From contig CBDFMP010000043.1 in assembly GCA_965249715.1 (NCBI GenBank), forward strand, positions 2,771 to 66,770: a DNA stretch of 64,000 bases, read 5' to 3'. The notes beneath the pieces are model-generated. The model did not search any database, was not told the DNA's origin, and was given only the letters and a program-made list of their open reading frames with translations. Within the stretch, counting starts at the first letter, position 1, and each line of letters starts with the position of its first letter. The DNA comes from Spirochaetota bacterium. Lineage in GTDB: Bacteria; Spirochaetota; UBA12135; COTS27. Below are positions 5,301 to 47,098 of this stretch, piece after piece. The position numbers and the translations under genes were made by a program.

Positions 5301-5465
5301 TTAGCATTTTCCAGGTTTGCACCATCCAGCTCAGCACCTTGCAGGTCAGCATTTTGCAGCTGAGCCTTTTGCAGATTAGCCATTTGCAGCTGAGCACCTT
5401 GCAGCTGAGCACCTTGCAAGTCTAACTCTCTTAGATTAAGCTCTTGCAGATTAGCTTCCTTCAGT
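5301..5465. repeat. 15-bp in-frame tandem array (about 11 units) inside the pentapeptide pseudogene
   Basis: Consecutive 15-nt units of the type tcagcaccttgcagg / tgagcaccttgcagc, read directly from the sequence. Confidence 0.85.
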
Positions 5466-5565
5466 CTGGCAGTTTTTATATTTTTTGCTAACTTAAAATT
5501 GGTGATATTTTTTAAGTAAGCTGCTGTAAGATCAGCGTCTTGCAGGTCGGTATCCTTATCAAACT

Positions 5566-5715
5566 CAGCACCATGCAGCTGAGCCTTTTGCAGCTGAGCA
5601 CCTTGCAGCTGAGCACCTTGTAGGTCAGCACCTTGTAGGTCAGCACCTTGCAGGTCAGCACCTTGCAGGTCAGCCCTTTGCAGGTTAGCACCTCGCAGAT
5701 TAGTATCTCGCAGAT
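5566..5715. repeat. 15-bp in-frame tandem array, 10 units, several identical
   Basis: Units run 5566-5580, 5581-5595 ... 5701-5715. Examples are gagcaccttgcagct, cagcaccttgtaggt x2 and cagcaccttgcaggt x2. Confidence 0.9.
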
Positions 5716-6949
5716 CTCCCTTTTAGATCAAGCTTTTGCAGCTTAGCTCCCTCCAGTGTGGCAGTTTTTATATTTTTTGCTAACTTAAAATTGATGGTCC
5801 CTGTAAGTCAGCTTCTGTAAGATTCAGCGCCTTGCAGGTCGGTCTGCTTATCAAACTGAGCGCCTTGCAACACTTCGCAGCACCTAACCCTTAGGTCAAG
5901 CCCTTGCAGCTGAGCTCTCTCCAGTGTGGCAGTTTTTATATTTTTTGCTAACTTAAACCCGATAGCCTTTTGTAAATCAGCACTTGTAAGGTCAGCGCCT
6001 TGCAAGTCGGTATCCTTATCAAACTCAGCACCTTGCAGGTTAGCATCTTTTAAAATAACACCTTGCAGCTTAGCTTTTTTTAATGACGCTCCCTCAAGGT
6101 TAGCTCCTGTTAAGTCAAAGCCAGTATTGCTTAAATCAACTTCAGCTAAGTTAAAATTTCTAAGGTTAGCAACATCATTATTTTAGTAATTAGATCACCC
6201 CCGTTAAATATCGTTTTTATTTCTTCCTTATACATACCTTGTCTCTGTAATCGTACAAGTTGAGTAAAAGCAACTGTCCTTTCCTTAAAGTTTTCTTTAT
6301 TAAAAAACGATTTCTTAGCATCAGAGAAAAGTCCCAAATTAATCTGCTCCTGTGTCTTTTGTAATCTGTTCCCGCGTGTCAAGCGTCCTAAAAATCAATC
6401 TGCCCATCCAACACCGGCAATGCTATGAGCACCCCGATTCAATCGCTTGAACCACCACAGCCCCAAAATCTTTACCAGTGCTTAGCCCACAAGTAGCAGC
6501 CCTAAAATAATTGCTATCGCACATTTGTATTATCATGCTATCGGGAAACACCCGCAAATACACTTGTAAGAATCAGCTGCATACCCCCAATCCTATCCCG
6601 AATAACCTCAACAACCTTAAACGCCACCTTTTCGAAATCCACTCTTTTGCTTTGCGTCAACCCCTTCTACTGCCATATTTACTGCCTTTAGTTGTTGCAT
6701 ATCATCATCTCTCCTAAATATAACGCGTCAAGCTTTTCCATCTGTTTGACGGTGTACGCTAAAACCCTAATGGTATTTGTCACATGCTGGATTTCAGTTT
6801 TCGTGATAACCCTATTTTTGCGCGCGAGGATCCTTGGATAATCAATCTTTAATAACTCAAGGTATGTCATCCGACTAGCTTGAGATCTGTCAAGAGACCA
6901 ATTCTTACTCATTTTTTAAGGCAACTATATACATTAGCGGACTTAATTC

Positions 6950-14439: not shown

Positions 14440-17004
14440 TCAATAAAAATAACGCAGGCTCAGTTCAATGCTGCGTGCAGGTTCGGTCTCCAGCGCAATG
14501 CGGTTTTCCGTTTCAAAATCATAAACCGTATATTCCAATGTCTCCAATGCAAAATCCAACAGATTATAAACATTAAGATAAATATCCAAAAACCGTGTAT
14601 GCGACAACGACACACGCCATTTAAAGCGCAGATCAAGATTCCAGCGTGCATCTTCACGCGTGCCAAATTCACCATTATACAGCAGAAGGTTATCACCGCT
14701 CACTTCATCGCGCAGCCAGGAAACGTGTGCGCCCGGCCCATCCTGATCCAAAAAGTAATCCCAGGAACCTGCCGGTTGCCCATCGCGATAGGATAAAACA
14801 AAGGCCCCCGTTAAATTCTTTAAAAACTGATAGGATGCAAACACACGCACCAAATATGAACGATCCATATCATAACGTCCCACCGGTTTGAGCAAATTAT
14901 TGGGGTCCGCCATGCTGTATTCAAAAACTCCAAGACTATTATGCACGGGACCATTGCCTTGCCGCGTGATGCCATTTAGCAGATAAGCGGTGAAAGTGAT
15001 CGCAAAAGTGTATCGTTTACCGATGCCATTAAACCCTGTTGTCGCGCCTAAGTACATGGGACTGTTATTGAACCATGTGCGCCCGCTCTCAGGAAAATAT
15101 GAGCTCGGCAAATTACAGAGCTCATATTGTTTTTCCCCATTAGTCTCATAAAAGACATTGGTGCCGTCTTCATCCCTGTATTCGCCATAATTTGTAGCCG
15201 CGCCTTTATAACAAACCCAGGGCATTTGTTTAAAAAGTCTGTAATGCCCGCCTAAGGAAAAAGTCCATGCACGCGCCAATTGCGCAGTGAAGGGAATATC
15301 TAAATAATAATAATGCGGCTGTTTAAAATTATCAGCAAGCGATTGATAGCGCCCACCTGCAGTGCTATAAGTGGCATTGGTATCTGCAGAAGTACTGTCA
15401 GTGGCTACGTAGTTAACAGTATTTTGATAAGAATCGCTTAAGAACTGAGCGTACTCCGTGGTATAAGTAGTATTTTCACGTCCCAGTAAAATTCCCAAGC
15501 TGACCCGGCTTGTCTGCAAGGGTCTGAGTTCCACTCTAAAATAAGGCGTGACTCTGGCAACGGACTCAGCCACTAATAACAGCGCGTCCAAATCAAACCC
15601 CGCCTCCACTTCCCACCAATCTGTTGTGGCATCATTAATGCTAATGCCCAGCTGGTGTGCCAAAAGTCCATAAACCGTGTCTGCTTGCTGCACATGACTC
15701 TGATAAAGCGGAACTGCATTTGTATATTGATCATCGTCTTGAAAATAAACATTGCGCGTGAAGCTCTCTTTGGCTGGACTAATGGCTACAATAGCAAACC
15801 TTGTGGCTTCCACCAGCTTAAGAAATTCGTGACGATAAACATCAAAAGCCCAGCTGAACGTAGTCTGTGGCGTGAATTCTACAATGGTGCCTGGTACATT
15901 GGTGAAAGGATAAAGCCCTTCACCGGAAACACGTAATAGATTATAAGAATTTCCAGCTGGAGCATTGCTGGTTAGCTCATGCAGCCCCAAAGTGAGTGCT
16001 ATTGTTCCGTTAAGCTTACCAGCTCTGCGTTTAGCGTAAGTGGTCACTGCCAATGAGTTAAGCCCCAGCGTCTCCTCTTCACGTAAATGAAACTCAGCTC
16101 CCCAATGCTCACGAGTGAATAAACTTGCCATAAAACCGCCAGTCCAAACATGTGTGTCCGTTGCAGCCAACGGCTGCGTGTAACCGGTTACCGTCAGCGC
16201 CGCTGCGGTTTCTTTAAAAACACTATAACCCTGATTGGCACTTTCGTGGGTAAATTGCAAAAATTGGCGTGTCCCTAGGTGATAAAACAAATCGATCACA
16301 AATGGCTGTGTGGGTTTTAAGTCCGTTTGTAAAAGCGGCTGGAGAACATGGCGTTGAAATCCTTCCAGTCCAGCAATGGCGCCCGGGCGCTCAGTAGGTG
16401 CGGGAATTTCTCTGATCTGTGCCGCACGATGAATATTGGAAAAGGCTTCCGCATAAGGTACCATGGGGCCTACTTGCCCTATGAGAATAGCGGTATAATT
16501 GAAAGCGGATGCGGTCTGTGCTGGTACGTAATTGCGTGTACCCGCTAAACCGTCTATAGCCACATCGTGACCAAGCGGCAACAGACGATACAGTGAACGT
16601 CCTGAGAAATAAGCGCTTGTTGTTTCTATTGTATTTATATAACTGCGGTTCCAAAGCCATGGATGACCATAAAGTGAATAAACTTCACCATCGGCAAAGG
16701 AAAAAGCCCCTGTGCTTTCTAATTGATAAGTGCTTTGTGGAAGTGTATGTGTGAGCAATGCGGAGAGGCGAAATGAGAGATAACGATCTGCAAAAAAGTC
16801 AAGCGGCAGCCACTCGCGCACTGCTACGGGAAGCAAAAGCTGCTGTCTGCTGCCGCGCGTATAATCATCAGCCGCTATTGGTTCACTCAGTGGAAGTGCC
16901 CATAACATGGGGGGCAGCAGGCAGCCCCAGGCTATCCATGCAAACAATGGCATTAAAAAACGCGAACAGCGCCGTAACATAAAAAACAAAAAATACAATA
17001 ACAT
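14440..17004 (-). CDS. Large hypothetical outer-membrane (beta-barrel-like) protein
   Basis: 854 aa with an N-terminal signal sequence (MLLYFLFFMLRRCSRFLMPLFAWIAWGCLLPPMLWALP), aromatic-rich alternating strands and the terminal ...SIELSLRYFY. Its 5' end is part of the tandem repeat at 16812-17901. Confidence 0.55.
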   Translation of the reverse strand: MLLYFLFFMLRRCSRFLMPLFAWIAWGCLLPPMLWALPLSEPIAADDYTRGSRQQLLLPVAVREWLPLDFFADRYLSFRLSALLTHTLPQSTYQLESTGAFSFADGEVYSLYGHPWLWNRSYINTIETTSAYFSGRSLYRLLPLGHDVAIDGLAGTRNYVPAQTASAFNYTAILIGQVGPMVPYAEAFSNIHRAAQIREIPAPTERPGAIAGLEGFQRHVLQPLLQTDLKPTQPFVIDLFYHLGTRQFLQFTHESANQGYSVFKETAAALTVTGYTQPLAATDTHVWTGGFMASLFTREHWGAEFHLREEETLGLNSLAVTTYAKRRAGKLNGTIALTLGLHELTSNAPAGNSYNLLRVSGEGLYPFTNVPGTIVEFTPQTTFSWAFDVYRHEFLKLVEATRFAIVAISPAKESFTRNVYFQDDDQYTNAVPLYQSHVQQADTVYGLLAHQLGISINDATTDWWEVEAGFDLDALLLVAESVARVTPYFRVELRPLQTSRVSLGILLGRENTTYTTEYAQFLSDSYQNTVNYVATDSTSADTNATYSTAGGRYQSLADNFKQPHYYYLDIPFTAQLARAWTFSLGGHYRLFKQMPWVCYKGAATNYGEYRDEDGTNVFYETNGEKQYELCNLPSSYFPESGRTWFNNSPMYLGATTGFNGIGKRYTFAITFTAYLLNGITRQGNGPVHNSLGVFEYSMADPNNLLKPVGRYDMDRSYLVRVFASYQFLKNLTGAFVLSYRDGQPAGSWDYFLDQDGPGAHVSWLRDEVSGDNLLLYNGEFGTREDARWNLDLRFKWRVSLSHTRFLDIYLNVYNLLDFALETLEYTVYDFETENRIALETEPARSIELSLRYFY

Positions 17005-17096
17005 AAATAATAATCCCTATCAGTTTGCCAAACCTTAACGCGAGCGCTGCAACAGCTTGCCAATGAGCGGCGAAGGTTCAAGTTTAAACGTCTTCA

Positions 17097-17357
17097 TTAA
17101 CCGCCGCCCGTCAACCGCCAAGTCTTTAACAGAAAGTGCTGCTGCTTGTTTGATAGCAGCCGCCACTCGCGCACTGCTACGGGAAGCAATAGCTGCTGTC
17201 TGCTGCCGCGCGTATAATCCTCAGCCGCTATTGGTTCACTCAGTGGAAGTGCCCATAACATGGGGGGCAGCAGGCAGCCCCAGGCTATCCATACAAACAA
17301 TGGCATTAAAAAACGCGAACAGCGCCGTAACATAAAAAACAAAAAATACAATAACAT
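17097..17357 (-). pseudogene. Decoy copy of the 854-aa gene 5' end (86-aa ORF)
   Basis: The first 65 aa are nearly identical to the 14440..17004 N-terminus. The ORF then reads into an inverted-frame cca fragment. Confidence 0.85.
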
Positions 17358-17490
17358 AAATAATAATCCCTATCAGTTTGCCAAACCTTAACGCGAGCGC
17401 TGCAAAAAAGCCTCAGCCGCGCGCACTAGCTGTACGCGCGTATTCAAAGCAAACGTCTTCATTAACAGCCGCCCGTCAACCGCCAAGTCT

Positions 17491-17658
17491 TTAACATGAA
17501 GTGCTGCTGCCGCACGTATAATCCTCAGCCGCTATTGGTTCCAGTGGAAGTGCCCATAACATGGGCGGCAGCAGGCAGCCCCAGGCTATCCCTGCAAACA
17601 ATGGCATTAAAGAACGCGAACAGCGCCGTAACATAAAAAACAAAAAATACAATAACAT
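17491..17658 (-). pseudogene. Second decoy copy of the 854-aa gene 5' end (55-aa ORF, below the track cutoff)
   Basis: My translation: MLLYFLFFMLRRCSRSLMPLFAGIAWGCLLPPMLWALPLEPIAAEDYTCGSSTSC*. Confidence 0.8.
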
Positions 17659-17688
17659 AAATGATAATCCCTATCAGTTTGCCAAACC

Positions 17689-19119
17689 TTAACGCGAGCG
17701 CTGCAAAAAAGCCCCAGCCGCGCGCACTAGCTGTACGCGCGTATTTAAAGCAGGAGTTTCCAAAACCATTTCCAACAAATGCCGCAACAGCTTGCCAATG
17801 AGCGGCGAAGGTTCAAGCTTAAACGTCTTTATTAACAGCCGCCCGTCAACCGCCAAGTCTTTAACATGAAGTGCCGCTGCTTGTTCGATGGCAGCCGCCA
17901 CACGCGCCTCAAACCGCAATAGTTCCGTTTCTTCACGTTGCAAAGTACGCGTAACCGCCAAGTGCGATGTCATCCCGCGGCCTTTCCTGTCCGCACGCAC
18001 CAATGCCAATAATAACGAAACATTGGCAAGCCCCACACGGCGCAGCCAGCGGCGTATAGTTGCGTCATTCCAGTTGTCTGTGCTGTAAAGCATATGTTCA
18101 CGTACCAAACGTGTCACACGCGCACTCAGCTTGCTTGCAAAGCGCAAGCGCCGAAGAATTTGCGCCGTCTGCTCAGCCCCTTTAACGTCATGTTGAAAAA
18201 ATGTAGCCTGTCCAGTTTCTGGCAAAACTTTGCGTGTTTGCGGCTTCGCCACATCGTGAAAGAGCGCAGCCAGCGGCAGTTCCAGCGCCTGCCGCAACTC
18301 GTGCTCCGCTGCCAGCTTATGTTGATAATCCGTGACAGCAGCCAACACAGCCAGCGTGTGTTCGTACACATCATAGGCATGAAAGGCATTTTGTGACACA
18401 CCCTGCAGTGTCGTTAGTTCCGGGAGAAATTCCTGTAAAAGACCGCTAACATTAAGGGCGCGCATGCCTGCAACAGCATTCTGCCCGCTAAGCAATTTAC
18501 TCAGCTCATCACGAATGCGCTCTACGGCTATGCGCTTCAACTGCCCGGCCATCGCCTGCATCGCCTGCAAACAAGCTGTTGTCAGTGTAGCATCCAACTG
18601 TGCCACAAAACGACAAGCACGCATCATCCTGAGCGCATCTTCTGTAAACCGTTCTTGGGCATTGCCAATAGTGCGAATACACCGAGCTTGCAGATCTGCA
18701 CGTCCGTTAAAAGCATCGAGCACTTCCTTAGTTTCAGGGTGATAGGCAAAAGCATTAATGGTAAAATCGCGCCGCTTCAGATCTTCAATAAGCCGCCGCG
18801 TAAAAAAAACCTCACTTGGTCTGCGTGCGTCGTGATAAGTCCCCTCTGTGCGATACGTTGTGACCTCATAAGCATCGCCATCCACTAAGAGGGTTAACGT
18901 ACCGTGTGCAATGCCCGTAGGCAGCGCAGCCGGGAACAGCTGCTTCAGCTCCTGAGGCGTGGCACTGGTGGCAAAGTCAATATCACCACCGCGGCGTCCC
19001 AAAAGCTGATCGCGCACAAAGCCGCCCACAACGTACAGCTCATACCCTGCCGCAGCCACCCTGTGGTATAACCGCATGGCACTGGCTTGCAGAGCTATGG
19101 GAAACTTAAATGCTTCCAC
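17689..19119 (-). CDS. cca: CCA-adding tRNA nucleotidyltransferase with HD domain
   Basis: 476 aa with the Pol-beta-type motif GGFVRDQLLGRRGGDIDFAT, RRDFTINA, and an HD region (LFHDVAKP). Confidence 0.85.
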   Translation of the reverse strand: MEAFKFPIALQASAMRLYHRVAAAGYELYVVGGFVRDQLLGRRGGDIDFATSATPQELKQLFPAALPTGIAHGTLTLLVDGDAYEVTTYRTEGTYHDARRPSEVFFTRRLIEDLKRRDFTINAFAYHPETKEVLDAFNGRADLQARCIRTIGNAQERFTEDALRMMRACRFVAQLDATLTTACLQAMQAMAGQLKRIAVERIRDELSKLLSGQNAVAGMRALNVSGLLQEFLPELTTLQGVSQNAFHAYDVYEHTLAVLAAVTDYQHKLAAEHELRQALELPLAALFHDVAKPQTRKVLPETGQATFFQHDVKGAEQTAQILRRLRFASKLSARVTRLVREHMLYSTDNWNDATIRRWLRRVGLANVSLLLALVRADRKGRGMTSHLAVTRTLQREETELLRFEARVAAAIEQAAALHVKDLAVDGRLLIKTFKLEPSPLIGKLLRHLLEMVLETPALNTRVQLVRAAGAFLQRSR

Positions 19120-21966: not shown

Positions 21967-24228
21967 ATGGGTACCACTACCTTAGATACTATCAATACAC
22001 TTACCTTAGCGCTGGCTGCTGGAATTTTAAGTATTATTGTTGCACGGCGTCTCCAGCTGGTCCCTATTGTCTTACTTCTGGTCACTGGCGTGGTCATTGG
22101 TCCGGAGGGGCTAGGATGGCTGCATCCTAAAAAGCTCGGCGAAACCCTGGAAATTCTCCTGCAAGTAGGAATTGCCATCATCCTTTTTGAAGGCGCCCTC
22201 ACCCTCAACTACAACGAATATAAAAAAGCCGGTAATATCATCTTCAACCTGCTCTCCTTCGGCATCCTGCTCACCTGGCTGTTAAACGCTTTCGCCATCG
22301 TTCTATTTTTTCAGTTTCCGCTTCGTTACGCACTGTTTCTGAGCAGTATCATTGTTGTGACCGGGCCAACCGTTATTATGCCGCTACTCCGCCGCATGAA
22401 TCTTAACCACAATCTCACCCATATTTTGCATTGGGAAGGAATTCTTATCGATCCCATTGGCGTCTTTCTGGCGATCTTTTGTTTTGAGCTGCTCATTAGC
22501 GGCGGCGAAGGTGTTGTGATTGTCAAGCTGTTCACGCGTTTGGGTATTGGCATTATCGTTGGCGCGCTCTTTGGTATGCTGGGCGCTACCGCACTCAATC
22601 GCCGCTGGATTCCGCAAGAACTGCACAATAGCTTCATTCTCATGTGGGCACTGTTAACGTTTGCCAGCTGCAATATCATCCTTTCCGAATCAGGTCTGCT
22701 TGCAGTGGTGGTTGCAGGCATTGTCTTGGGTTATTACAAAAAGGTGTCATTGGAAGAAATTAAAAAATTCAAACTTGATCTGACTGAGATCTTTACTGCC
22801 ATTATCTTCATCCTGCTGTCCGCTGACCTCAGCTTCACCAACATCAAACGTGTCCTTCCGCAGGGCATTTTTTTGATCTGTTTCATCCTGTTTGTCACAC
22901 GTCCGCTCAGTATCTTTATCTGTTCGCTTGGCAGCAAACTCAGCATACGCGATAAACTCTTTCTTTCCTGGGTAGCGCCACGCGGCATCATCGCTGCTTC
23001 CATGGTCACATTATTCTCCTATTCGCTCAATTCTGAAACTGAGCTTGCCCCCGCCATTGCCAAAGAGCTTTATTTTATGGAAACCTTTGTCTTTGCTGTT
23101 ATTGCTGTTACCGTTGTTTTCCAAGGTACGACTGCGCCCTTTGTTGCCAAAGCTCTTGGTGTCAAACGCGATCTGGCGCGCAATTGGGTCATTGTTGGAG
23201 CACACGAACTCAGTGCTACCATTGCAGAATATCTCATGTCCATGGGCAAGGAGGTCATTCTCTTAGACAGCAATAAAACCAAGCTTAATATTTATGCTCA
23301 ACGCGGCATTGTCACCGAACACGGCAATAGTCTTGCCTACGATATTTTCGATCGTGAAAATTTTATCCACACAGGACGTGTTCTTGCCATCACCGATAAC
23401 ATGGAACTCAACGTATTGATCTGCCAGCATTGGAAGAAAGTGGTGCGCCCGGACGGACTTTACAACTGGAGTGGGCCAGCAACAGCCACAGCCAACATCA
23501 ATACCATAGCCTCCACCGCCGTGTGGCAACAGCTAGCCAAACCCAGTATCCTCGAAAGTCAGCTCAGCAACCAAGAACGCTCACTGCTCATCAAGGCACC
23601 GGCAGAACTCAATGCACAGGAGCGCGAGCATGCAGTACCGCTCTTGGCCATCCCCACAAACGGTGATGTGCTGTTTTCACCCGATTTAAACAATAAAACC
23701 CTTGCCCCGCTGCTGACAAACAAATGGCTGCTGCTGGTCAAAGTTAGTTTTTCATTGCAAAGCTTTATCAAAGCCGGTTATCTTGCCGTCCTCAATACTG
23801 CCCCACTCACAAGTGAAATTGTTTATCGGCACGTTTTAACACAAGTTAAAACACCGCTCGGGCTCACCGCAAAGACCAGTCGCGATGACATCCTCCAGCA
23901 TTTACAGGAGCAAGAACAAGTTAAAAGTGTTTGCATAGGCAATCAAGTCGCCATTTTTCCAACATTGCAAAAGGCCTTTACAGAGCCGCTTGTAACCGTA
24001 ATCACCACACGCAGCGGTGTGGACATGCACGCATATGATAAAAAACCTATCCGTATCTGGTTCTTTATTTTTGCACACAATGCCGATTCGCTGCGTTATC
24101 TCTCATTAATTTCTCATATTTCTAAAATTGTGACCGATGAATCAACAAGAAACAAATTGCTTGCTGCTGATACCACCGTTATGCTGGAACAAGCATTATT
24201 TCAAGCATTGGCGCAAAAAAATATTTGA
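21967..24228 (+). CDS. CPA1-family Na+/H+ (cation/proton) antiporter with C-terminal regulatory domains
   Basis: 753 aa with about 12 TM helices in the N-terminal two thirds. These are followed by a TrkA-N/KTN-like segment (WVIVGAHELSATIAEYLMSMGKEVILLDSN) and a PTS-EIIA-2-like tail. The last 227 bp lie in the first 371-bp repeat unit. Confidence 0.8.
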   Translation: MGTTTLDTINTLTLALAAGILSIIVARRLQLVPIVLLLVTGVVIGPEGLGWLHPKKLGETLEILLQVGIAIILFEGALTLNYNEYKKAGNIIFNLLSFGILLTWLLNAFAIVLFFQFPLRYALFLSSIIVVTGPTVIMPLLRRMNLNHNLTHILHWEGILIDPIGVFLAIFCFELLISGGEGVVIVKLFTRLGIGIIVGALFGMLGATALNRRWIPQELHNSFILMWALLTFASCNIILSESGLLAVVVAGIVLGYYKKVSLEEIKKFKLDLTEIFTAIIFILLSADLSFTNIKRVLPQGIFLICFILFVTRPLSIFICSLGSKLSIRDKLFLSWVAPRGIIAASMVTLFSYSLNSETELAPAIAKELYFMETFVFAVIAVTVVFQGTTAPFVAKALGVKRDLARNWVIVGAHELSATIAEYLMSMGKEVILLDSNKTKLNIYAQRGIVTEHGNSLAYDIFDRENFIHTGRVLAITDNMELNVLICQHWKKVVRPDGLYNWSGPATATANINTIASTAVWQQLAKPSILESQLSNQERSLLIKAPAELNAQEREHAVPLLAIPTNGDVLFSPDLNNKTLAPLLTNKWLLLVKVSFSLQSFIKAGYLAVLNTAPLTSEIVYRHVLTQVKTPLGLTAKTSRDDILQHLQEQEQVKSVCIGNQVAIFPTLQKAFTEPLVTVITTRSGVDMHAYDKKPIRIWFFIFAHNADSLRYLSLISHISKIVTDESTRNKLLAADTTVMLEQALFQALAQKNI

Positions 24229-24246
24229 CCCCAAATAACAAAACTT

Positions 24247-24480
24247 GTGATAATCCTGAAAAGTTTACCTGAGCTCGCAAAAATGTGTATTGCCGGTCGG
24301 ATGGCGGCTGAATTACTGGTTTATTTGGGAGAACATGTCAAAGCGGGCATCGCCACTATGGATTTGGAAGTCTCACCACACGCAGCGGTGTGGACATGCA
24401 CGCATATGCTAAAAAACCTATCCGTAGCGGATTTTTTATTTTTACACACAATGCCGCTTCATTGCGTTAGCTCTCACTAA
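24247..24480 (+). pseudogene. Chimeric decoy ORF: first 42 codons of map fused out of frame to an antiporter-tail copy
   Basis: 77 aa reading MIILKSLPELAKMCIAGRMAAELLVYLGEHVKAGIATMDLEV, then unrelated sequence. Confidence 0.85.
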
Positions 24481-24617
24481 TTTCTCATATTTCTAAAATC
24501 GTGACCGATGAATTAACAAGAAACAAATTGCTTGCTGCTGATAGCACTGTTATGCTGGAACAAACATTATTTCAGACATTGGCGCAAAAAAATATTTGAC
24601 CCCAAATAACAAAACTT

Positions 24618-24851
24618 GTGATAATCCTGAAAAGTTCACCTGAGCTCGCTAAAATGCGTATTGCCGGTCGGATGGCGGCTGAATTACTGGTTTATTGGGG
24701 AGAACATGTCAAAGCGGGCATCGCCACTATGGATTTGGAAGTCTCACCACACGCAGCGGTGTGGACATGCACGCATACGCTAAAAAACCTATCCGTATCT
24801 GGTTCTTTATTTTTGCACACAATGCCGCTTCATTGCGTTAGCTCTCACTAA
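24618..24851 (+). pseudogene. Second chimeric decoy ORF (map 5' fragment)
   Basis: 77 aa with the same architecture as 24247..24480, offset by 371 bp. Confidence 0.85.
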
Positions 24852-24988
24852 TTTCTCATATTTCTAAAATCGTGACCGATGAATTAACAAGAAACAAATT
24901 GCTTGCTGCTGATAGCACTGTTATGCTGGAACAAACATTATTTCAGACATTGGCGCAAAAAAATATTTGACCCCAAATAACAAAACTT

Positions 24989-25741
24989 GTGATAATCCTG
25001 AAAAGTTCACCTGAGCTCGCTAAAATGCGTATTGCCGGTCGGATGGCGGCTGAATTGCTGGTTTATTTGGGAGAACATGTCAAAGCGGGCATCGCTACTA
25101 TGGATTTGGAAGTCCTCAGCCGCGCGTGGATTCACAAACACAAAGTGCGCTCGGCTACGCTGAATTATAAAGGCTTCCCCGCCACCATCTGCACTTCCGT
25201 TAACAACGTCGTTTGCCATGGCATCCCCAGTCATACTGCCATTTTAAATAAAGGCGATATTATTAACATTGACGTCACATTGATTGTCAACGGTTACCAT
25301 GGCGACGTTTCACGCACCTTTATCATTCCGCCCGCCCCACCGCACGTTCACGCGCTGGTCACGCGTACCGAACAGGCGCTCATGCACGGCATTAATGCCA
25401 TTACAGCCGGCAAATCGATTAACGTTATTGGCACTGCCATTGAAAAATTTATTAAACCGTTTCACTATGGCATTGTCAGTGCCCTCTGCGGGCATGGCAT
25501 TGGCGAAGCCTTTCACGAAGATCCTTTTGTCATGCACATTAAACAGCGCCGCAAGGGCGCACGGCTGCTCCCGGGGATGACCTTTACTGTGGAACCGATG
25601 ATCAATGCCGGCTCCGCGCAAGTTTATACTTCGGCTGAAGATGGTTGGAGTGTCTTCACACGCGATGACATGTTGTCTGCACAGTTTGAACATACCATTG
25701 CTGTGCTTGAGCAAGGTTGTGAAATTTTAACCGCAAGCTAA
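24989..25741 (+). CDS. map: Methionine aminopeptidase, type I
   Basis: 250 aa with a GTG start. The N-terminus aligns with the E. coli MAP N-terminus. Metal-ligand blocks are present: CHGIP, NIDVT, GYHGD, GHGIG..FHE, FTVEPM, QFEHT. Confidence 0.95.
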   Translation: MIILKSSPELAKMRIAGRMAAELLVYLGEHVKAGIATMDLEVLSRAWIHKHKVRSATLNYKGFPATICTSVNNVVCHGIPSHTAILNKGDIINIDVTLIVNGYHGDVSRTFIIPPAPPHVHALVTRTEQALMHGINAITAGKSINVIGTAIEKFIKPFHYGIVSALCGHGIGEAFHEDPFVMHIKQRRKGARLLPGMTFTVEPMINAGSAQVYTSAEDGWSVFTRDDMLSAQFEHTIAVLEQGCEILTAS

Positions 25742-37700: not shown

Positions 37701-38003
37701 CATAAAAACACGCAAGGTCATAAAATTGTCAAAGGTCTCAGACGTGTAGGAAGCAATGCCCGTAATCTCTTCCAACTCTATTTCCAAGGGCACCGTCACT
37801 TCTGCTTCCAATTCCTGAGCCACCTGTCCGCCCACTGCAACCGAAATTAATAGCTCACGCAAATCCACCTGTGGAAATGCATAACGACGCATGCTTAAAA
37901 CAGACATCACGAAAGCTCCCAGAATTACCAAGAGCAATGCGTATTTAACGTTTTTGTGCTGAATTAAATAGCTAACTAATCTGTGAACAATATCTTTAAT
38001 CAC
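34728..38003 (-). CDS. RND-family efflux transporter, inner-membrane subunit (AcrB/AcrD/AcrF family)
   Basis: 1091 aa with a GTG start. It shows the 12-TM/2-large-loop RND architecture and a conserved TM4 region (GLIVDGAIVISENI). No adjacent MFP or OMF gene is in the window. Confidence 0.85.
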   Translation of the reverse strand: MIKDIVHRLVSYLIQHKNVKYALLLVILGAFVMSVLSMRRYAFPQVDLRELLISVAVGGQVAQELEAEVTVPLEIELEEITGIASYTSETFDNFMTLRVFMADGASLPEVKDDIRAAIARVPVLVSTNSRLIIRELKSENIPALSLGIVSTQGHLLRAREHAVALKELIAMLPDVGTVDEINIPPQEIHILLDRDKLYQSRFSLLEINQAVRAATQAFFISPIPEPAANNATTITAYTKSIYPDDLENAVLRLVPEGTNVREVRLGELGKVVPALAPTLREVHRYNGTPGFGLNVILKGSADIITTVNEVKAVIDEYVADSANADLQLVTVFDGSEETRTRLTTVYENAALGAILVLLVLLIFLSRKVAFWTTVGIGTSLAITFILLNLIGISLNSISLCGIIISLGLIVDGAIVISENIYSFKEAGYPANTAALLGLENMLKPLAIMQLTTMAAFAAIFLIEGSVGAFAREIPIVTISMLAASLLDAIILLPAHLGISSWKTRQPARAAASHAPATAMANGSADGIVYEIEETHSRAEFQRLSFVLKLLLFCQLRLIGVLRAVYLKVLKQLIKRPYLVLGMFLTLAAPAATWLLLNTDFELFPEEQANIIEFEGAVAAAPTIAATSSVVAELEAIIEELPPGVVNNYYAIVGHGAPDKFWLVVQLTAFGNRDMTILAVRDFVFNRVAERELNFATFAHYIDTDGILRYGHPVEVSVIGADDTRRAELVTQLTKDMEELGLKEIRSDLHAFRSDRKVELLSNTIAFAGIDPQALGATLRGAFSGEVVASVRDQDTHTNFRVKLDTDTIVTADPLANILVRDRRGVNVELSELATLSEQTALVSIYHHNGERQNTIYARFDPELTTANSVYKELRTKYSDFATEHPGFELVISGKSEKSYSTLNAVIFSLIAATFFIYLFLVFQFNNFIQPLITVAAIPLSILGALAAFYFHGVKFSVFAMLGLLGASGVVVNVSLVMIEFMNRLMKKQGQQTVKTTTVDFRTTLTQAALSGAGSRFRPIFITTLTTLVGIMPTVYGFINPADSFIYPMTLAMFWGITVGTLASLGMIPLVYWIERDCAKWVVQRLRKKSFH

Positions 38004-38062
38004 AACAGCTACTTCTCACTTAAGCTTAAATGAAATGATACAAAATGTGTACCATAAAGTAT

Positions 38063-38071
38063 ATTATAACA
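38063..38071 (-). promoter_or_regulatory. Extended -10 element (TGTTATAAT) about 60 nt upstream of the RND pump start; duplicated at 38470-38478
   Basis: The minus strand reads gaTGTTATAATat in both repeat copies. Confidence 0.4.
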
Positions 38072-38098
38072 TCGACTGAGTAAGCTTGCTTCAGTTGG

Positions 38099-38353
38099 TT
38101 ATGGTGATGTGAAGTTCAGTGGAAACGGCACACGGCAGCTATTGATAAAATCACGTGCTGTCATCAACCGTCTGCCCGGCTGTTTCAATTGCACTAGCTC
38201 AAGCGGCGGTTCAGCTGCACCCAGCCACTGCATAAAGGGCAACGGACTCAGCAGCTGCAGCTCTGCCAACAAATAAGGCTGTGTTTCGATCCTGCAGACA
38301 ATGCCATTGCCATTGCCATCGTCAAAGGCGCGCAGTTTACATTGCAAGCTCAC
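38099..38353 (-). pseudogene. Truncated duplicate of the fmt C-terminus (84-aa ORF)
   Basis: SLQCKLRAFDDGNG...LSPLPFMQWL|GAAEPPLELVQLKQPGRRLMTARDFINSCRVPFPLNFTSP matches the fmt C-terminus with a 40-aa internal deletion. Confidence 0.9.
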
Positions 38354-38505
38354 TGCCGAATCGTTGACAGCAAACTATGTTGCGCGTGAACTGTACTTGG
38401 ACGAATGAGTGACCGCTGTTTCATCCTTAAGCTTAAATGAAATGATACAAAATCTGCACCATAAAATATATTATAACATCGACTGAGCAAGCTTGCTTCA
38501 GTTGG

Positions 38506-39540
38506 TTATGGTGATGTGAAGTTCAATGGAAACGGCACACGGCAGCTATTGATAAAATCACGTGCTGTCATCAACCGTCTGCCCGGCTGTTTCAATTGCA
38601 CTAGCTCAAGCGGCGGTTCAGCTGCACCCAGCCACAGCAGTAATTTTCGTTCCTTACCGTACGCCCATTTTAAAATACGCGCACCCGCTGCCGCAACGTT
38701 TGTTTGCGGCAGCTGGGCAACCAAGGCCTCAGTGTTATCCTGCTGCTGCAGCCACTGCATAAAGGGCAACGGACTCAGCAGCTGCAGCTTTGCCAACAAA
38801 TAAGGCTGTGCTTCGATCCTGCAGGCAATGCCATTGCCATCGTCAAAGGCACGCAGTTTACATTGCAAGCTCACTGCCGAATCGTTGACAGCAAACTGTG
38901 TTGCGCTTGAACTGTACTTGGGCGAATGAGTGACCGCTGTTTCATCCTGCGGCAAAGCCGTTAAACTTTGCCAGCGTGTGAAAAACGGCACCAATGTTTG
39001 CCGCGTGAGGGCAAGCGCTTGCTGCATACACTCAGTGTAACCCTGCTGCCCCAGCGCCCATTCACGCTGCAAGACAATAGGCCCCGCATCCAAACGCCGA
39101 ACAATTTTCTGAATACTGATACCGCTCTTGGCATCACCGCTTAGGATAGCTGAACGCAAGGGCGCTGCGCCGCGGTGGCGCGGCAAAAGCGAAAAATGAA
39201 CATTGAAACAGCCGCCGTGCGGCACATTAAAAAATGCTTGCGGCAAAAGTTTGCCGTAAGCCACAATGAACCCGAAATCAACGGCATAATGCGCCAACGC
39301 GGAGCAGGCGGCAGCGTCAATATGCTCAGGTTCATGACAAGGAATGTCCAAACGTCGGGCAAGCTGCCCAACAGCCGTAGGAGCAAGCGTACTGCGCCTG
39401 TCGCGCAATGTCCGCCTGCGCAGCGGTGCCGTCCACACAGCACGCACAGTGGCTAAGCGCTGCGTGACAATAAATTCTAAAAGCTCCGCCGCCAGCAGCG
39501 GTGAACCCATATAAACAATTACCGGGCGTCTGGGCAACAT
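38506..39540 (-). CDS. fmt: Methionyl-tRNA formyltransferase
   Basis: 344 aa with an N-terminal formyltransferase fold and the motif FNVHFSLLPRHRGAAPL. The C-terminal domain is somewhat longer than usual. Confidence 0.9.
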   Translation of the reverse strand: MLPRRPVIVYMGSPLLAAELLEFIVTQRLATVRAVWTAPLRRRTLRDRRSTLAPTAVGQLARRLDIPCHEPEHIDAAACSALAHYAVDFGFIVAYGKLLPQAFFNVPHGGCFNVHFSLLPRHRGAAPLRSAILSGDAKSGISIQKIVRRLDAGPIVLQREWALGQQGYTECMQQALALTRQTLVPFFTRWQSLTALPQDETAVTHSPKYSSSATQFAVNDSAVSLQCKLRAFDDGNGIACRIEAQPYLLAKLQLLSPLPFMQWLQQQDNTEALVAQLPQTNVAAAGARILKWAYGKERKLLLWLGAAEPPLELVQLKQPGRRLMTARDFINSCRVPFPLNFTSP

Positions 39541-45147: not shown

Positions 45148-46215
45148 ATGAACGTATTAAAAACCATTTTAACCAAACACAAGGCATTTAAATCCAAGCT
45201 GGCAGAGCCTGCTTTCATGAAAGATCAACAAAGCTATAAAAAGGTGCTTAAAGATTTTCAAAGATTAACGCCTATTGTCACGGCTTATGAAGCACACGAG
45301 CAGGTGCTTACTAAGATTAAGGACTATGAAGCCATGCTGCAAACAGAACAGGATACGGACGTACGTAAGCTGATTGTCATGGAATTGGAAAATGAAAATG
45401 CACAAGCAGAAAAGCTGGCGGAAGCAGTTAAGCTGGCGCTTGTCTCCAGCGAAACAGAGAATTTTGAAAGCCTCATCATGGAGATCCGTGCTGGAACAGG
45501 GGGTGAAGAAGCATCGCTTTTTGCAGCAGACCTTGTCCGCATGTACGCCAAACTTGCCGAACGGCGCAAATGGCAGATGGAGATCTTAAATCAATCGCTA
45601 AGTGGAGTAAAGGGTTATAAAGAAGTGAGTTTCATGATCAAAGGCAAAGAAGCTTATGCAACGCTGAAACATGAAACCGGCACGCATCGCGTGCAACGCG
45701 TGCCTGAAACAGAATCCAGTGGCCGTATCCATACTTCAGCGGTAACCGTAGCGGTCCTGGGTGAAGTGCCCGCAGAAGAATTGGAAGTGCGCATGGAAGA
45801 CCTTAAAATAGACACTTATCGCGCCAGCGGTGCCGGCGGGCAGCACGTGAACACCACCGACTCTGCCATTCGCATCACACACTTGCCTTCCGGCATTGTG
45901 GTCACGTGTCAAGATGAACGCTCTCAGTATAAAAACAAGGAACGGGCGCTAAAAATCCTCCGCGCGCGTCTCTACAACGCTCAGCAAGAAAAGCTTCGCA
46001 GCGAACGCGCAAACGAACGCAAACAACAAGTAGGCTCCGGTGACCGTTCAGAAAAAATTCGTACTTATAATTTCCCACAAGGACGTGTAAGCGACCATCG
46101 CACCCAAGTCACTACTTATAATTTACAAGCGTTTTTAAACGGCGACTTGGACGAGATCATCACGTCGCTCAAAGAGCATGAAAAAACACTTGCGCTTAAG
46201 AATTTTAAATTTTAA
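45148..46215 (+). CDS. prfA: Peptide chain release factor 1
   Basis: 355 aa with the GGQ motif (SGAGGQHVNTT) and an RF1-type PxT tripeptide (PET) in RVQRVPETESSGRIHTS. Confidence 0.95.
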   Translation: MNVLKTILTKHKAFKSKLAEPAFMKDQQSYKKVLKDFQRLTPIVTAYEAHEQVLTKIKDYEAMLQTEQDTDVRKLIVMELENENAQAEKLAEAVKLALVSSETENFESLIMEIRAGTGGEEASLFAADLVRMYAKLAERRKWQMEILNQSLSGVKGYKEVSFMIKGKEAYATLKHETGTHRVQRVPETESSGRIHTSAVTVAVLGEVPAEELEVRMEDLKIDTYRASGAGGQHVNTTDSAIRITHLPSGIVVTCQDERSQYKNKERALKILRARLYNAQQEKLRSERANERKQQVGSGDRSEKIRTYNFPQGRVSDHRTQVTTYNLQAFLNGDLDEIITSLKEHEKTLALKNFKF

Positions 46216-47098
46216 CAGCTGGCAGCCCTAAGCCTTTTCCAATGTTGCAAGAATTTGCAGATAGTTCCTATACCGCTGGTTGTGCAGCTTACCAAGTTCA
46301 ACCGCCGCGCGCACTGCACAATTGGGTTCATGGTCGTGCAGACAATTCCTGTAAGTACAAGCAGCTGCCAAAGCTGTAAATTCCGGATAACAGGTTTTTA
46401 GCTCCTGACGCATAACGTCCGTAAAGGCAAGTTCTTTAAGCCCGCGGGCAGATCAAAAACCTCGCCGCCGTCACCGAGTTCATGCCGATGCACCCGTGTA
46501 GTGGTGTGGTGTCCGCGCCGCGTGAACGTAGAAACCGTTTTCACAAGTCCACGGTATATTTTGGATCAACGCGTCTGAGCAAGCTGTAAATTGCGTAAAG
46601 GCGTCTTGCCCGAGTTCATGCCGATGCACACCAGAATGCCCAACAATAACACTGCGCTTGCACTCAAAAACTTTAGCAGCTGACAGCCCTAAGCCTTTTC
46701 CAATGTTGCAAGAATTTGCAGATAGTTCCTATACCGCTGGTTGTGCAGCTTACCAAGTTCAACCGCCGCGCGCACTGCACAATTGGGTTCATGGTCGTGC
46801 AGACAATTCCTGTAAGTACAAGCAGCTGCCAAAGCTGTAAATTCCGGATAACAGGTTTTTAGATCCTGACGCATAACGTCCGTAAAGGCAAGTTCTTTAA
46901 GCCCGGGCAGATCAAAAACCTCGCCGCCGTCACCGAGTTCATGCCGATGCACCCGTGTAGTGGTGTGGCGTCCGCGCCGCGTGAACATAGAAACCGTTCT
47001 CACAAGTCCACTGTATTTTGGATCAACGCGTCTGAGCAATGCCGTCTTACCCACACCAGAATGCCCAACAATAACACTGCGCTTGCGCTCAAAGACTT
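46211..47098. repeat. Tandem duplication of the prfA-stop / rsgA-3'end region (about 461-bp degenerate copy + about 426-bp intact copy)
   Basis: cagctg(g/a)cagccctaagccttttccaatgttgc... starts at 46216 and 46677 (offset 461). The degenerate copy carries small indels and a patchwork insert at about 46582-46627. Confidence 0.9.
46228..46413 (-). pseudogene. Duplicate fragment of the rsgA 3' end (homology continues to about 46672)
   Basis: The 61-aa ORF is identical in sequence to the RsgA C-terminus (…CTYRNCLHDHEPNCAVRAAVELGKLHNQRYRNYLQILATLEKA). Confidence 0.9.

Follow-up and report, generated by a model that had tools for sequence, protein, structure and literature searches.

In Escherichia coli, tandem duplications and deletions can form independently of RecA, by replication slippage or template switching at short homologies (S. 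Lovett and others), and recJ encodes one of the exonucleases that limit these slippage events. Upstream open reading frames (ORFs) and leader peptides that regulate by attenuation or translational coupling are conserved and sequence-specific. Tandem repeats of variable copy number, along with truncated gene fragments, were reportedly described in Ehrlichia ruminantium by Collins et al. 2005 (PNAS 102:838) and Frutos et al. 2006 (J Bacteriol 188:2533). Ehrlichia ruminantium has the lowest coding ratio among bacteria, long intergenic regions, and active expansion and contraction at tandem repeats (PMC10710844). In Wolbachia, a handful of intergenic variable-number tandem repeat (VNTR) loci are reportedly used as typing markers (PMC3287509). 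Here we describe a locus of a marine Spirochaetota bacterium (assembly GCA_965249715.1) at which the boundary between cca, the gene for CCA tRNA nucleotidyltransferase, and a gene for an 854-aa protein of predicted transporter-like fold is present in three tandem copies. It lies in a 64,000-nucleotide stretch of contig CBDFMP010000043.1 (positions 2,771 to 66,770 of the forward strand), called the window below.

The locus shares with the E. coli slippage events its head-to-tail joints and deletions at imperfect homologies of a few to 18 nt, and its units of a few hundred bases; unlike in E. coli, the mechanism here is read from the joint sequences only. As with the VNTR loci of Wolbachia, the genome holds long-period tandem repeats between the genes of a host-associated bacterium, but there are about 160 such loci here, compared with the handful in Wolbachia. 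We argue that the triplicated junction is probably the multi-step scar of a genome-wide tendency to short (~200–700 bp) tandem segmental duplications and not a dedicated regulatory device.

Results

Structure of the Triplicated Boundary

A repeat search and a three-way alignment place the three copies of the boundary on the minus strand, from 17907 to 16802 of the window. The search returned a 251-nt direct unit three times (16802–17052, 17155–17405, and 17456–17706) and a 127-nt pair that is 92% identical (17046–17172 and 17781–17907). Ungapped identity of the three 251-nt copies is 100, 98, and 75%. With insertions and deletions (indels) allowed, the segments align as homologous at 95–99% identity, which repeats of about 250 nt cannot reach by chance. 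The gap of 684 nt between the cca stop and the live ATG of the 854-aa gene (17005–17688) is filled by these boundary copies. Each of the ATGs at 17658, 17357, and 17004 has a TAA and a 30-nt spacer directly ahead of it, and the three stop–spacer–ATG modules differ by a single base, located in the spacer of the copy nearest cca. The junction repeat is confined to its own locus, with no second site in the genome. An earlier note, written from the letters of the window, had described a triplicated boundary with these three starts, and both the search and the alignment confirm it.

For reference, we rebuilt a single junction by joining the last 242 nt of cca, including its TAA, to the 30-nt spacer and this in turn to the initial 245 nt of the 854-aa gene (hereafter the transporter gene). 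The region was then mapped to this reference and is described here in the 5′-to-3′ direction of the minus strand. The live cca (17689–19119; 476 aa, assigned from its ORF with Pfam and NCBIfam) comes first, and its final ~220 nt (17907–17689) are the source of the duplicated tail fragments. Its tail, a spacer, and nucleotides 1–158 of the transporter gene occupy 17930–17504. The spacer that adjoins live cca (copy 3, 17659–17688) has an AGGGA Shine–Dalgarno-like motif 9 nt before the ATG. This ATG opens a 55-aa ORF (17491–17658) made of transporter-gene nucleotides 1–158 (copy c3, 17504–17658) and an out-of-frame cca fragment. At joint J1 (17504–17510), transporter-gene nucleotides ~152–158 meet position 51 of the cca tail with a 7-nt overlap, a GCAGCAG-type microhomology.

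The unit-2 cca tail fragment (17388–17510) follows. It holds tail positions 51–110 (17510–17451), lacks 68 nt at 17451, and resumes with positions 179–242, ending in a TAA at 17388–17390. The stretch after this deletion, 17451–17155, comprises tail positions 179–242, spacer copy 2 (17358–17387), and transporter-gene nucleotides 1–203 (copy c2, 17155–17357). The latter begin an 86-aa ORF (17097–17357) that, like the 55-aa one, passes into an out-of-frame cca fragment. At joint J2 (17155–17172), transporter-gene nucleotides ~186–203 meet cca-tail position 24 through an 18-nt imperfect homology (GCGCGaGTGGCgGCTGC). The unit-1 cca fragment (17035–17172) contains positions 24–147 (17172–17049), which are 92.7% identical to live cca, lacks 77 nt at 17049–17052, and closes with the final 18 nt and a TAA at 17035–17037. 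It can also be read as a 43-aa in-frame cca-tail ORF (17035–17166). Spacer copy 1 (17005–17034) abuts the start codon of the live transporter gene (14440–17004, minus strand, taken from the ORF list and a fold search), which begins with a hydrophobic N-terminal leader and from whose first 203 nt the head copies derive.

The earlier note had read different deletions in the two internal cca fragments and a shorter fragment of the downstream gene in the third unit. The mapping agrees on both counts: 68 nt are missing at 17451 and 77 nt at 17049–17052, and the head fragment breaks off at nucleotide 158 in J1 and at nucleotide 203 in J2. Because the joints and deletions differ between units, several successive events must have taken place, again as the note held. 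Its ancestral 30-bp spacer is deduced only from the three internal copies; in COTS27, the same-genus genome used for comparison, the gap is 312 nt and the N-terminus of the downstream protein is different.

We infer both the mechanism, slippage, and the order of events. The overlaps of 7 and 18 nt at the head-to-tail joints, and of 1 nt at the 68-nt deletion (aaagca/aacgtc) and 4 nt (TTGC) at the 77-nt deletion, look like the signature of slippage or template switching rather than of a site-specific or transposon-mediated process. The first step would have been slippage during copying, or a switch of template, between two stretches of short, imperfect homology. One of these lies within the opening ~200 nt of the transporter gene and the other ~220 nt ahead of the cca stop, and a boundary segment of ~430 nt would thereby have been doubled, leaving J2. 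Unequal exchange or a second slip could then have brought the array to three units and created J1, after which the extra cca fragments would have shed 68 and 77 nt by small deletions. Two histories of this kind may be drawn. In one, two independent duplications (J2, then J1) would be followed by two deletions. In the other, a single duplication (J2) would be amplified by unequal exchange, and three deletions would then remove 68, 77, and ~72 nt, with J1 arising from the ~72-nt one. In either case the intact cca would stay at the upstream edge and the intact transporter gene at the downstream edge. Such an array can persist because the duplicated segment holds the end of one gene and the start of the next, so nothing essential is broken.

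Tandem Arrays across the Genome

We ran Tandem Repeats Finder (TRF) on the whole 2.42-Mb assembly, keeping periods of at least 100 nt and matches of at least 85%. The resulting 224 arrays merged into 164 loci, which make up 8.2% of the genome. Their median period is 274 nt (interquartile range 228–354), their median copy number is 3, and their median identity is 95%. Periods that are multiples of 3 are not in excess (64 of 164). Using non-overlapping ORFs of at least 100 aa as a proxy for genes and random segments one period long as the expectation, we found that only 9% of arrays lie inside one ORF, compared with an expected 64% (p = 4e-46). Arrays are strongly enriched at convergent gene ends (tail–tail; 22% observed, 1% expected, p = 5e-35) and on one gene tail only (36% vs. 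8%, p = 7e-22). Tail–head junctions, the type to which the cca locus belongs, hold 14% of arrays (10% expected, not significant), a head alone 6% (10% expected, not significant), and divergent (head–head) junctions 1%, as expected. Counted per junction, arrays occur at 34 of 237 convergent junctions (14%) and at 2 of 231 divergent ones. Among 1310 ORFs of at least 200 aa, extra nearby copies were found for the last 120 nt in 14.5%, for the first 120 nt in 4.5%, and for a mid-gene piece in 3.4%.

Head copies that carry the start codon precede some 40 genes. The resulting decoy ORFs typically have 40–140 codons, and some stand 7–9 in a row. The extreme cases are at C46:202953–205737, C11:15–1625, and C24:10396–11970 of the assembly, where 7–9 tandem gene starts, each with an ATG and an ORF of 64–103 codons, come before the live gene. 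The proxy coding share of the genome (ORFs of at least 100 aa, decoys included) is 0.81, which is below typical bacteria, although the proxy is crude. The biggest array, at C48:159751–169478, has a 1497-nt unit repeated 6.5 times at 95% identity, in or next to long ORFs at 147375–161414 and 162323–165919. It is probably a giant repetitive surface-protein gene rather than a gene-end duplication.

COTS27 is a crown-of-thorns starfish symbiont whose genome is a single contig of 2,684,921 bp, with a G+C content of 39.6% in the 400 kb that we sampled. Its cca lies immediately upstream of the orthologue of the transporter gene (54% identity), with a single junction, and the 312-nt gap between the two contains no relic repeats of either gene. 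The 400-kb sample holds 18 arrays (2.3%), mostly purely intergenic and of shorter period, and its proxy coding share, by the same crude measure, is 0.74. A genome of another family in the order had 2 arrays (0.6%) in 400 kb. We found no evidence that arrays were inherited at junctions orthologous with COTS27, since the 18 arrays gave only a few near-coincidences. The array trait thus belongs to the lineage, is strongest in the present genome, and turns over.

These distributions could also be produced by a targeted, lineage-specific process at the ends of transcription units, such as slippage provoked by termination or by head-on conflict between replication and transcription, rather than by random duplication filtered by selection; the cca locus would then have been struck because of its position at the 3′ end of cca. 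We think this unlikely, although it would fit the contrast between convergent and divergent junctions, the duplication of tails 3.2 times as often as heads, the narrow interquartile range of unit sizes, and the three deletions or trimmings at the cca locus that are all about 70 nt long. However, selection alone predicts the same ranking, because duplicated tails stay silent, whereas duplicated heads and promoters are expressed and thus costlier. In addition, the COTS27 arrays are mostly purely intergenic, none of the five repair genes that we checked is lost only in repeat-rich genomes, and the presence of a reverse transcriptase does not track the trait.

Loss of repair genes was rejected as the cause, with mutS, mutL, recA, and xseA present and intact in this genome. 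All six genomes of the order examined have these four genes; in one of the six (G002), the mutS match scores under the family cut-off and is interrupted by a single internal stop. No recJ homologue was found in the six genomes, repeat-poor ones included, so its loss is not a specific cause either. At C19:9191–10004 the mutS gene is intact and is followed by three degraded tandem repeats of the ~80 codons at its own C-terminal end. A reverse transcriptase that copies the 3′ ends of mRNA was likewise discarded as an explanation, as there is one reverse-transcriptase-like gene with an internal stop here, none in COTS27, and one in a repeat-poor genome.

Divergence among the Copies

At one codon, live cca has ATA (Ile, 17800–17802) where both cca fragments have ATG (Met, 17071–17073 and 17468–17470). 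The COTS27 orthologue also has Met, so the dead fragments preserve an older state of cca at this position.

Several observations weigh against a simple duplication scar. First, ages are uneven within one unit: the unit-1 cca fragment differs from live cca at 9 of 124 sites (7.3%), while the adjacent heads c1 and c2 differ at ~3 of 244 (1.2%; Fisher p = 0.004). This suggests a later homogenisation of the heads. Second, we pooled head and tail copies outside ORFs genome-wide and calculated the ratio of non-synonymous to synonymous differences (pN/pS) by NG86. In the pooled extra copies, pN/pS is 0.37–0.40 in the frame of the parent gene and 0.7–1.15 in the other two frames, and, whichever base type is considered, differences at third positions are 1.4–1.7 times as frequent as at the first two. 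The codon periodicity of the parent gene is seen even when extra tail copies, all lacking a start codon, are compared with each other. Simple neutral decay after one duplication does not predict such a pattern. Third, the repeat-rich genomes are not set apart by any of the five repair genes that we checked, and no cause of the high duplication rate was found. Fourth, duplicated heads are less common than duplicated tails and, at 4.5% of genes, do not significantly exceed copies of gene middles. The cca locus thus belongs to a less typical kind of array, and more than neutrality could lie behind its persistence. Finally, the presence of three copies on one molecule rests on the assembly and on depth parity.

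The simplest explanation of the codon pattern is that arrays are respawned from, or converted by, the live terminal copy, which passes on changes that selection has already filtered in the live gene. Its competitors are that some copies are alleles of co-existing strains or that the copies are translated and selected. The codon pattern is a puzzle that leaves the verdict on the cca locus unchanged.

A stronger version of the respawning idea is a long shot. The lineage might run an active process that keeps producing tandem copies, specifically where transcription units end, and keeps them uniform, with head arrays placing translatable decoys before the real start and so modulating expression whenever copy number shifts. 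If the copies went on exchanging sequence with the live gene, this would account for both the codon-patterned differences and the uneven ages within a unit. If true, such arrays would be a built-in expression variator based on copy number and not junk.

Read Support for the Joints

We recovered k-mer contigs covering the region from four public runs, all of one sample. J2 is spanned by contigs at 17085–17250 (run X1), 17053–17191 (run X2), and 17085–17191 (run X3), and J1 by contigs at 17481–17571 (runs X1 and X3) and 17475–17555 (run X2). Two contigs (17415–17480 and 17415–17490) span the joint of the 68-nt deletion, and a 56-nt contig present in X1, X2, and X3 (17023–17078) spans that of the 77-nt deletion. 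Loose contig ends at 17052 match the continuations predicted from the remaining two copies. The four rearrangement joints are genuine and not inventions of the assembler, because independent k-mer contigs of three runs span all four. The depth of copy-specific contigs is similar to that of the unique flanks (2–8×), and the stretch that is identical in two copies is ~1.5–2 times deeper. Because the runs share one sample and are not long-read, it is this depth, along with the assembly, that speaks for three copies on a single molecule.

The copy number could in part be a product of assembly, if two haplotypes with two copies each, one carrying J1 and the other J2, had been chained into three. 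The assembly is of the metagenome type, with 49 contigs, 2.42 Mb, and 85% completeness, and 10 arrays reach contig ends. Depth is low (2–9×), and a 94-nt stretch common to c1 and c2 exceeds the 31-mer word length, so linkage across it is uncheckable. Codon-patterned differences between copies are also what alleles of live genes would show. Nevertheless, both head-to-tail joints and both deletion joints are in the reads of three runs, so at least one duplication is real, and the depths described above fit a single genome. At least three distinguishable copies are the norm across the 164 array loci, and arrays also occur in the independently assembled, closed chromosome of COTS27. Depth parity makes a two-haplotype origin decidedly unlikely. 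We also looked for the locus in other samples. No metagenome contig matched it exactly, the cca protein is not recorded elsewhere in a protein-position index, and a search of further genome contigs for strain comparison gave distant cca homologues only. Among RNA runs, none contained the locus.

Decoy ORFs and the Question of Regulation

As previously described, both the 55-aa and the 86-aa ORF open with the same hydrophobic leader as the live transporter gene. Both end out of frame in cca sequence. A transcript reading through from cca would be expected to cross these two starts first, each with an AGGGA motif 9 nt upstream. In these respects they resemble regulatory leaders, being short ORFs with their own ribosome-binding site on the presumed transcript before the real start. 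Unlike regulatory leaders, they are recent copies of the gene's own head, are not found in COTS27, and show no locus-specific constraint.

The best explanation is that the two ORFs are unavoidable by-products of duplicating a boundary whose spacer is only 30 nt long, and we hold this, as part of the scar reading as a whole, to be probable. With such a short spacer, every duplicated cca tail that extends beyond the stop necessarily carries the ribosome-binding site, start codon, and leader of the next gene, and this obligatory carry-over is sufficient to explain the decoys.

The changes private to each copy point in the same direction. Those of c3 are three non-synonymous substitutions (F16S, W24G, and an R-to-C change), one synonymous substitution, one 3-nt in-frame deletion, and one change in the spacer; those of c2 are one non-synonymous (A-to-V) and one synonymous substitution. 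In sum, the decoys have four non-synonymous and two synonymous changes and one deleted codon, which is not the conservation expected of a leader peptide. They show no sign of constraint, with counts too small to prove neutrality. We found no sigma-70-like promoter in 16600–18100 on either strand, and terminator-like hairpins in that interval occur at chance frequency. A riboswitch, or any other known RNA, upstream of the transporter gene was rejected for want of an Rfam match or any excess of RNA structure, and the presumed leader RNA of 711 nt folds no better than shuffled sequence (z = +0.6).

A functional role for the repeated units is very unlikely. Under that proposal, the decoy starts would work like upstream ORFs or leader peptides, capturing ribosomes or secretion machinery, or the cca tails would supply a promoter in three doses, and copy number would tune the transporter gene, perhaps switching it as units come and go. 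Every unit does keep its stop, its 30-nt spacer with AGGGA, and its ATG, and the leader that follows stays open for 55 or 86 codons. Genome-wide, the start codon is kept in 100 of the 103 head copies in which it is covered, head copies have an in-frame pN/pS of ~0.4, and copy-number change has been reported for such tandem repeats in Ehrlichia ruminantium (PMC10710844). But duplicated tails show the same pN/pS of ~0.4, and because they have no start codon, the signal is not specific to translatable decoys. At 2–5% divergence, a 3-nt start is expected to be kept by chance, and local alignments clip mismatched ends. The local changes are chiefly non-synonymous, including the three in c3, the orthologous junction of COTS27 has no decoys, and neither a promoter-like site, nor an Rfam family, nor a stable RNA structure is present. 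The special role for the decoys that the earlier note implied is not supported by these comparisons: the same architecture recurs in the 164 arrays and in ~40 genes whose heads are duplicated, mostly with a start codon kept, only one junction is present in the closest sequenced relative, the decoy substitutions are mostly non-synonymous, and no regulatory signal was found. We infer that the decoys are without function.

The Two Flanking Genes and Other Repeats of the Window

The name given earlier to the upstream gene is borne out. Its product matches the NCBIfam family NF009814 at 311.2 bits (cut-off 290) and the Pfam families PF01743, PF12627, PF01966, and PF13735, which cover the PolyA_pol head, RNA-binding, and HD domains.

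The 854-aa protein matched no Pfam or NCBIfam family at E ≤ 0.01, and a PDB profile search returned no transporter. Orthologues of similar length are present in 11 of 40 related genomes. We built an AlphaFold model on an alignment of ten orthologues; it has a predicted template modeling score (pTM) of 0.77 and a mean predicted local distance difference test (pLDDT) score of 74, and shows an N-terminal helix followed by long antiparallel strands. Foldseek matched the model to FusA (E 3e-19), YddB, PirA, PfeA, and BtuB, with E values from 3e-19 to 1e-13 and TM-scores of 0.5–0.65; the top three matches, FusA, YddB, and PirA, have E values from 3e-19 to 1e-16. The model supports a TonB-dependent-transporter-like outer-membrane β-barrel, at the level of fold only because no TonB_dep_Rec, Plug, or other sequence family was matched. 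This agrees with the outer-membrane label that the gene had been given before.

Other repeats lie elsewhere in the window. A second triplicated junction, ~7 kb away at 24002–25118 (371 nt × 3, 95% identical), is built from the 3′ end of the gene for a 753-aa cation/proton antiporter, which has a tail resembling IIA of the phosphotransferase system (PTS), together with the start of the methionine aminopeptidase gene (map). Two 77-aa decoy ORFs with the N-terminus of map (24247–24480 and 24618–24851) stand ahead of the live map (24989–25741). A duplication at 38013–38948 involves a co-directional junction between a 344-aa gene ending at 38506 and a 1091-aa gene starting at 38003, and another at 46207–47039 (period 461 nt, 97% identical) involves the convergent junction of genes ending at 46215 and 46689. 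Repeats of a different, short-period kind are found at 5319–6074 (15/30/45-nt and 168-nt repeats, 75–87% match).

Discussion

The cca locus is best explained as an ordinary by-product of known genome dynamics in a new lineage, and the genome-wide pattern is somewhat more interesting than the locus itself. The locus is useful as a fully resolvable example of a gene boundary that has been multiplied without breaking either gene. It also shows a route by which new short ORFs can arise already equipped with start signals and secretion leaders. This has a practical consequence for annotation, since gene callers will list dozens of spurious small signal-peptide proteins in such genomes. The wider pattern, with its near-empty gene interiors, a roughly threefold higher frequency of duplication for tails than for heads, arrays at 14% of convergent junctions, and codon-patterned divergence, could help to separate mutation bias from selection.

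The absence of recJ distinguishes this genome from E. coli, but the same is true of the whole order, including repeat-poor genomes. The nearer comparison is with Ehrlichia ruminantium. In both, a host-associated genome has tandem repeats of one to a few hundred bases between genes, derived partly from gene ends, and the intergenic distance is inflated while the genes at the edges remain intact. In E. ruminantium, expansion and contraction are targeted at non-coding regions. E. ruminantium is an alphaproteobacterium and an intracellular pathogen, whereas the present organism is a spirochaete and a relative of a subcuticular symbiont of starfish. Its proxy coding share of ~81%, with 8.2% of the genome in arrays, compares with ~64% coding reported for E. 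ruminantium. Strain-to-strain variation in copy number is a documented feature of E. ruminantium, while the present genome is known from one sample; the bias of tails over heads and the codon-patterned divergence are features measured in the present genome. The genome described here has several of the traits that mark the Ehrlichia style: many long-period arrays spread over its length, their position outside gene interiors, truncated copies of flanking genes, and intact genes at the edges. The wider value of the locus is as a data point in a second, phylogenetically unrelated case of that genome style.

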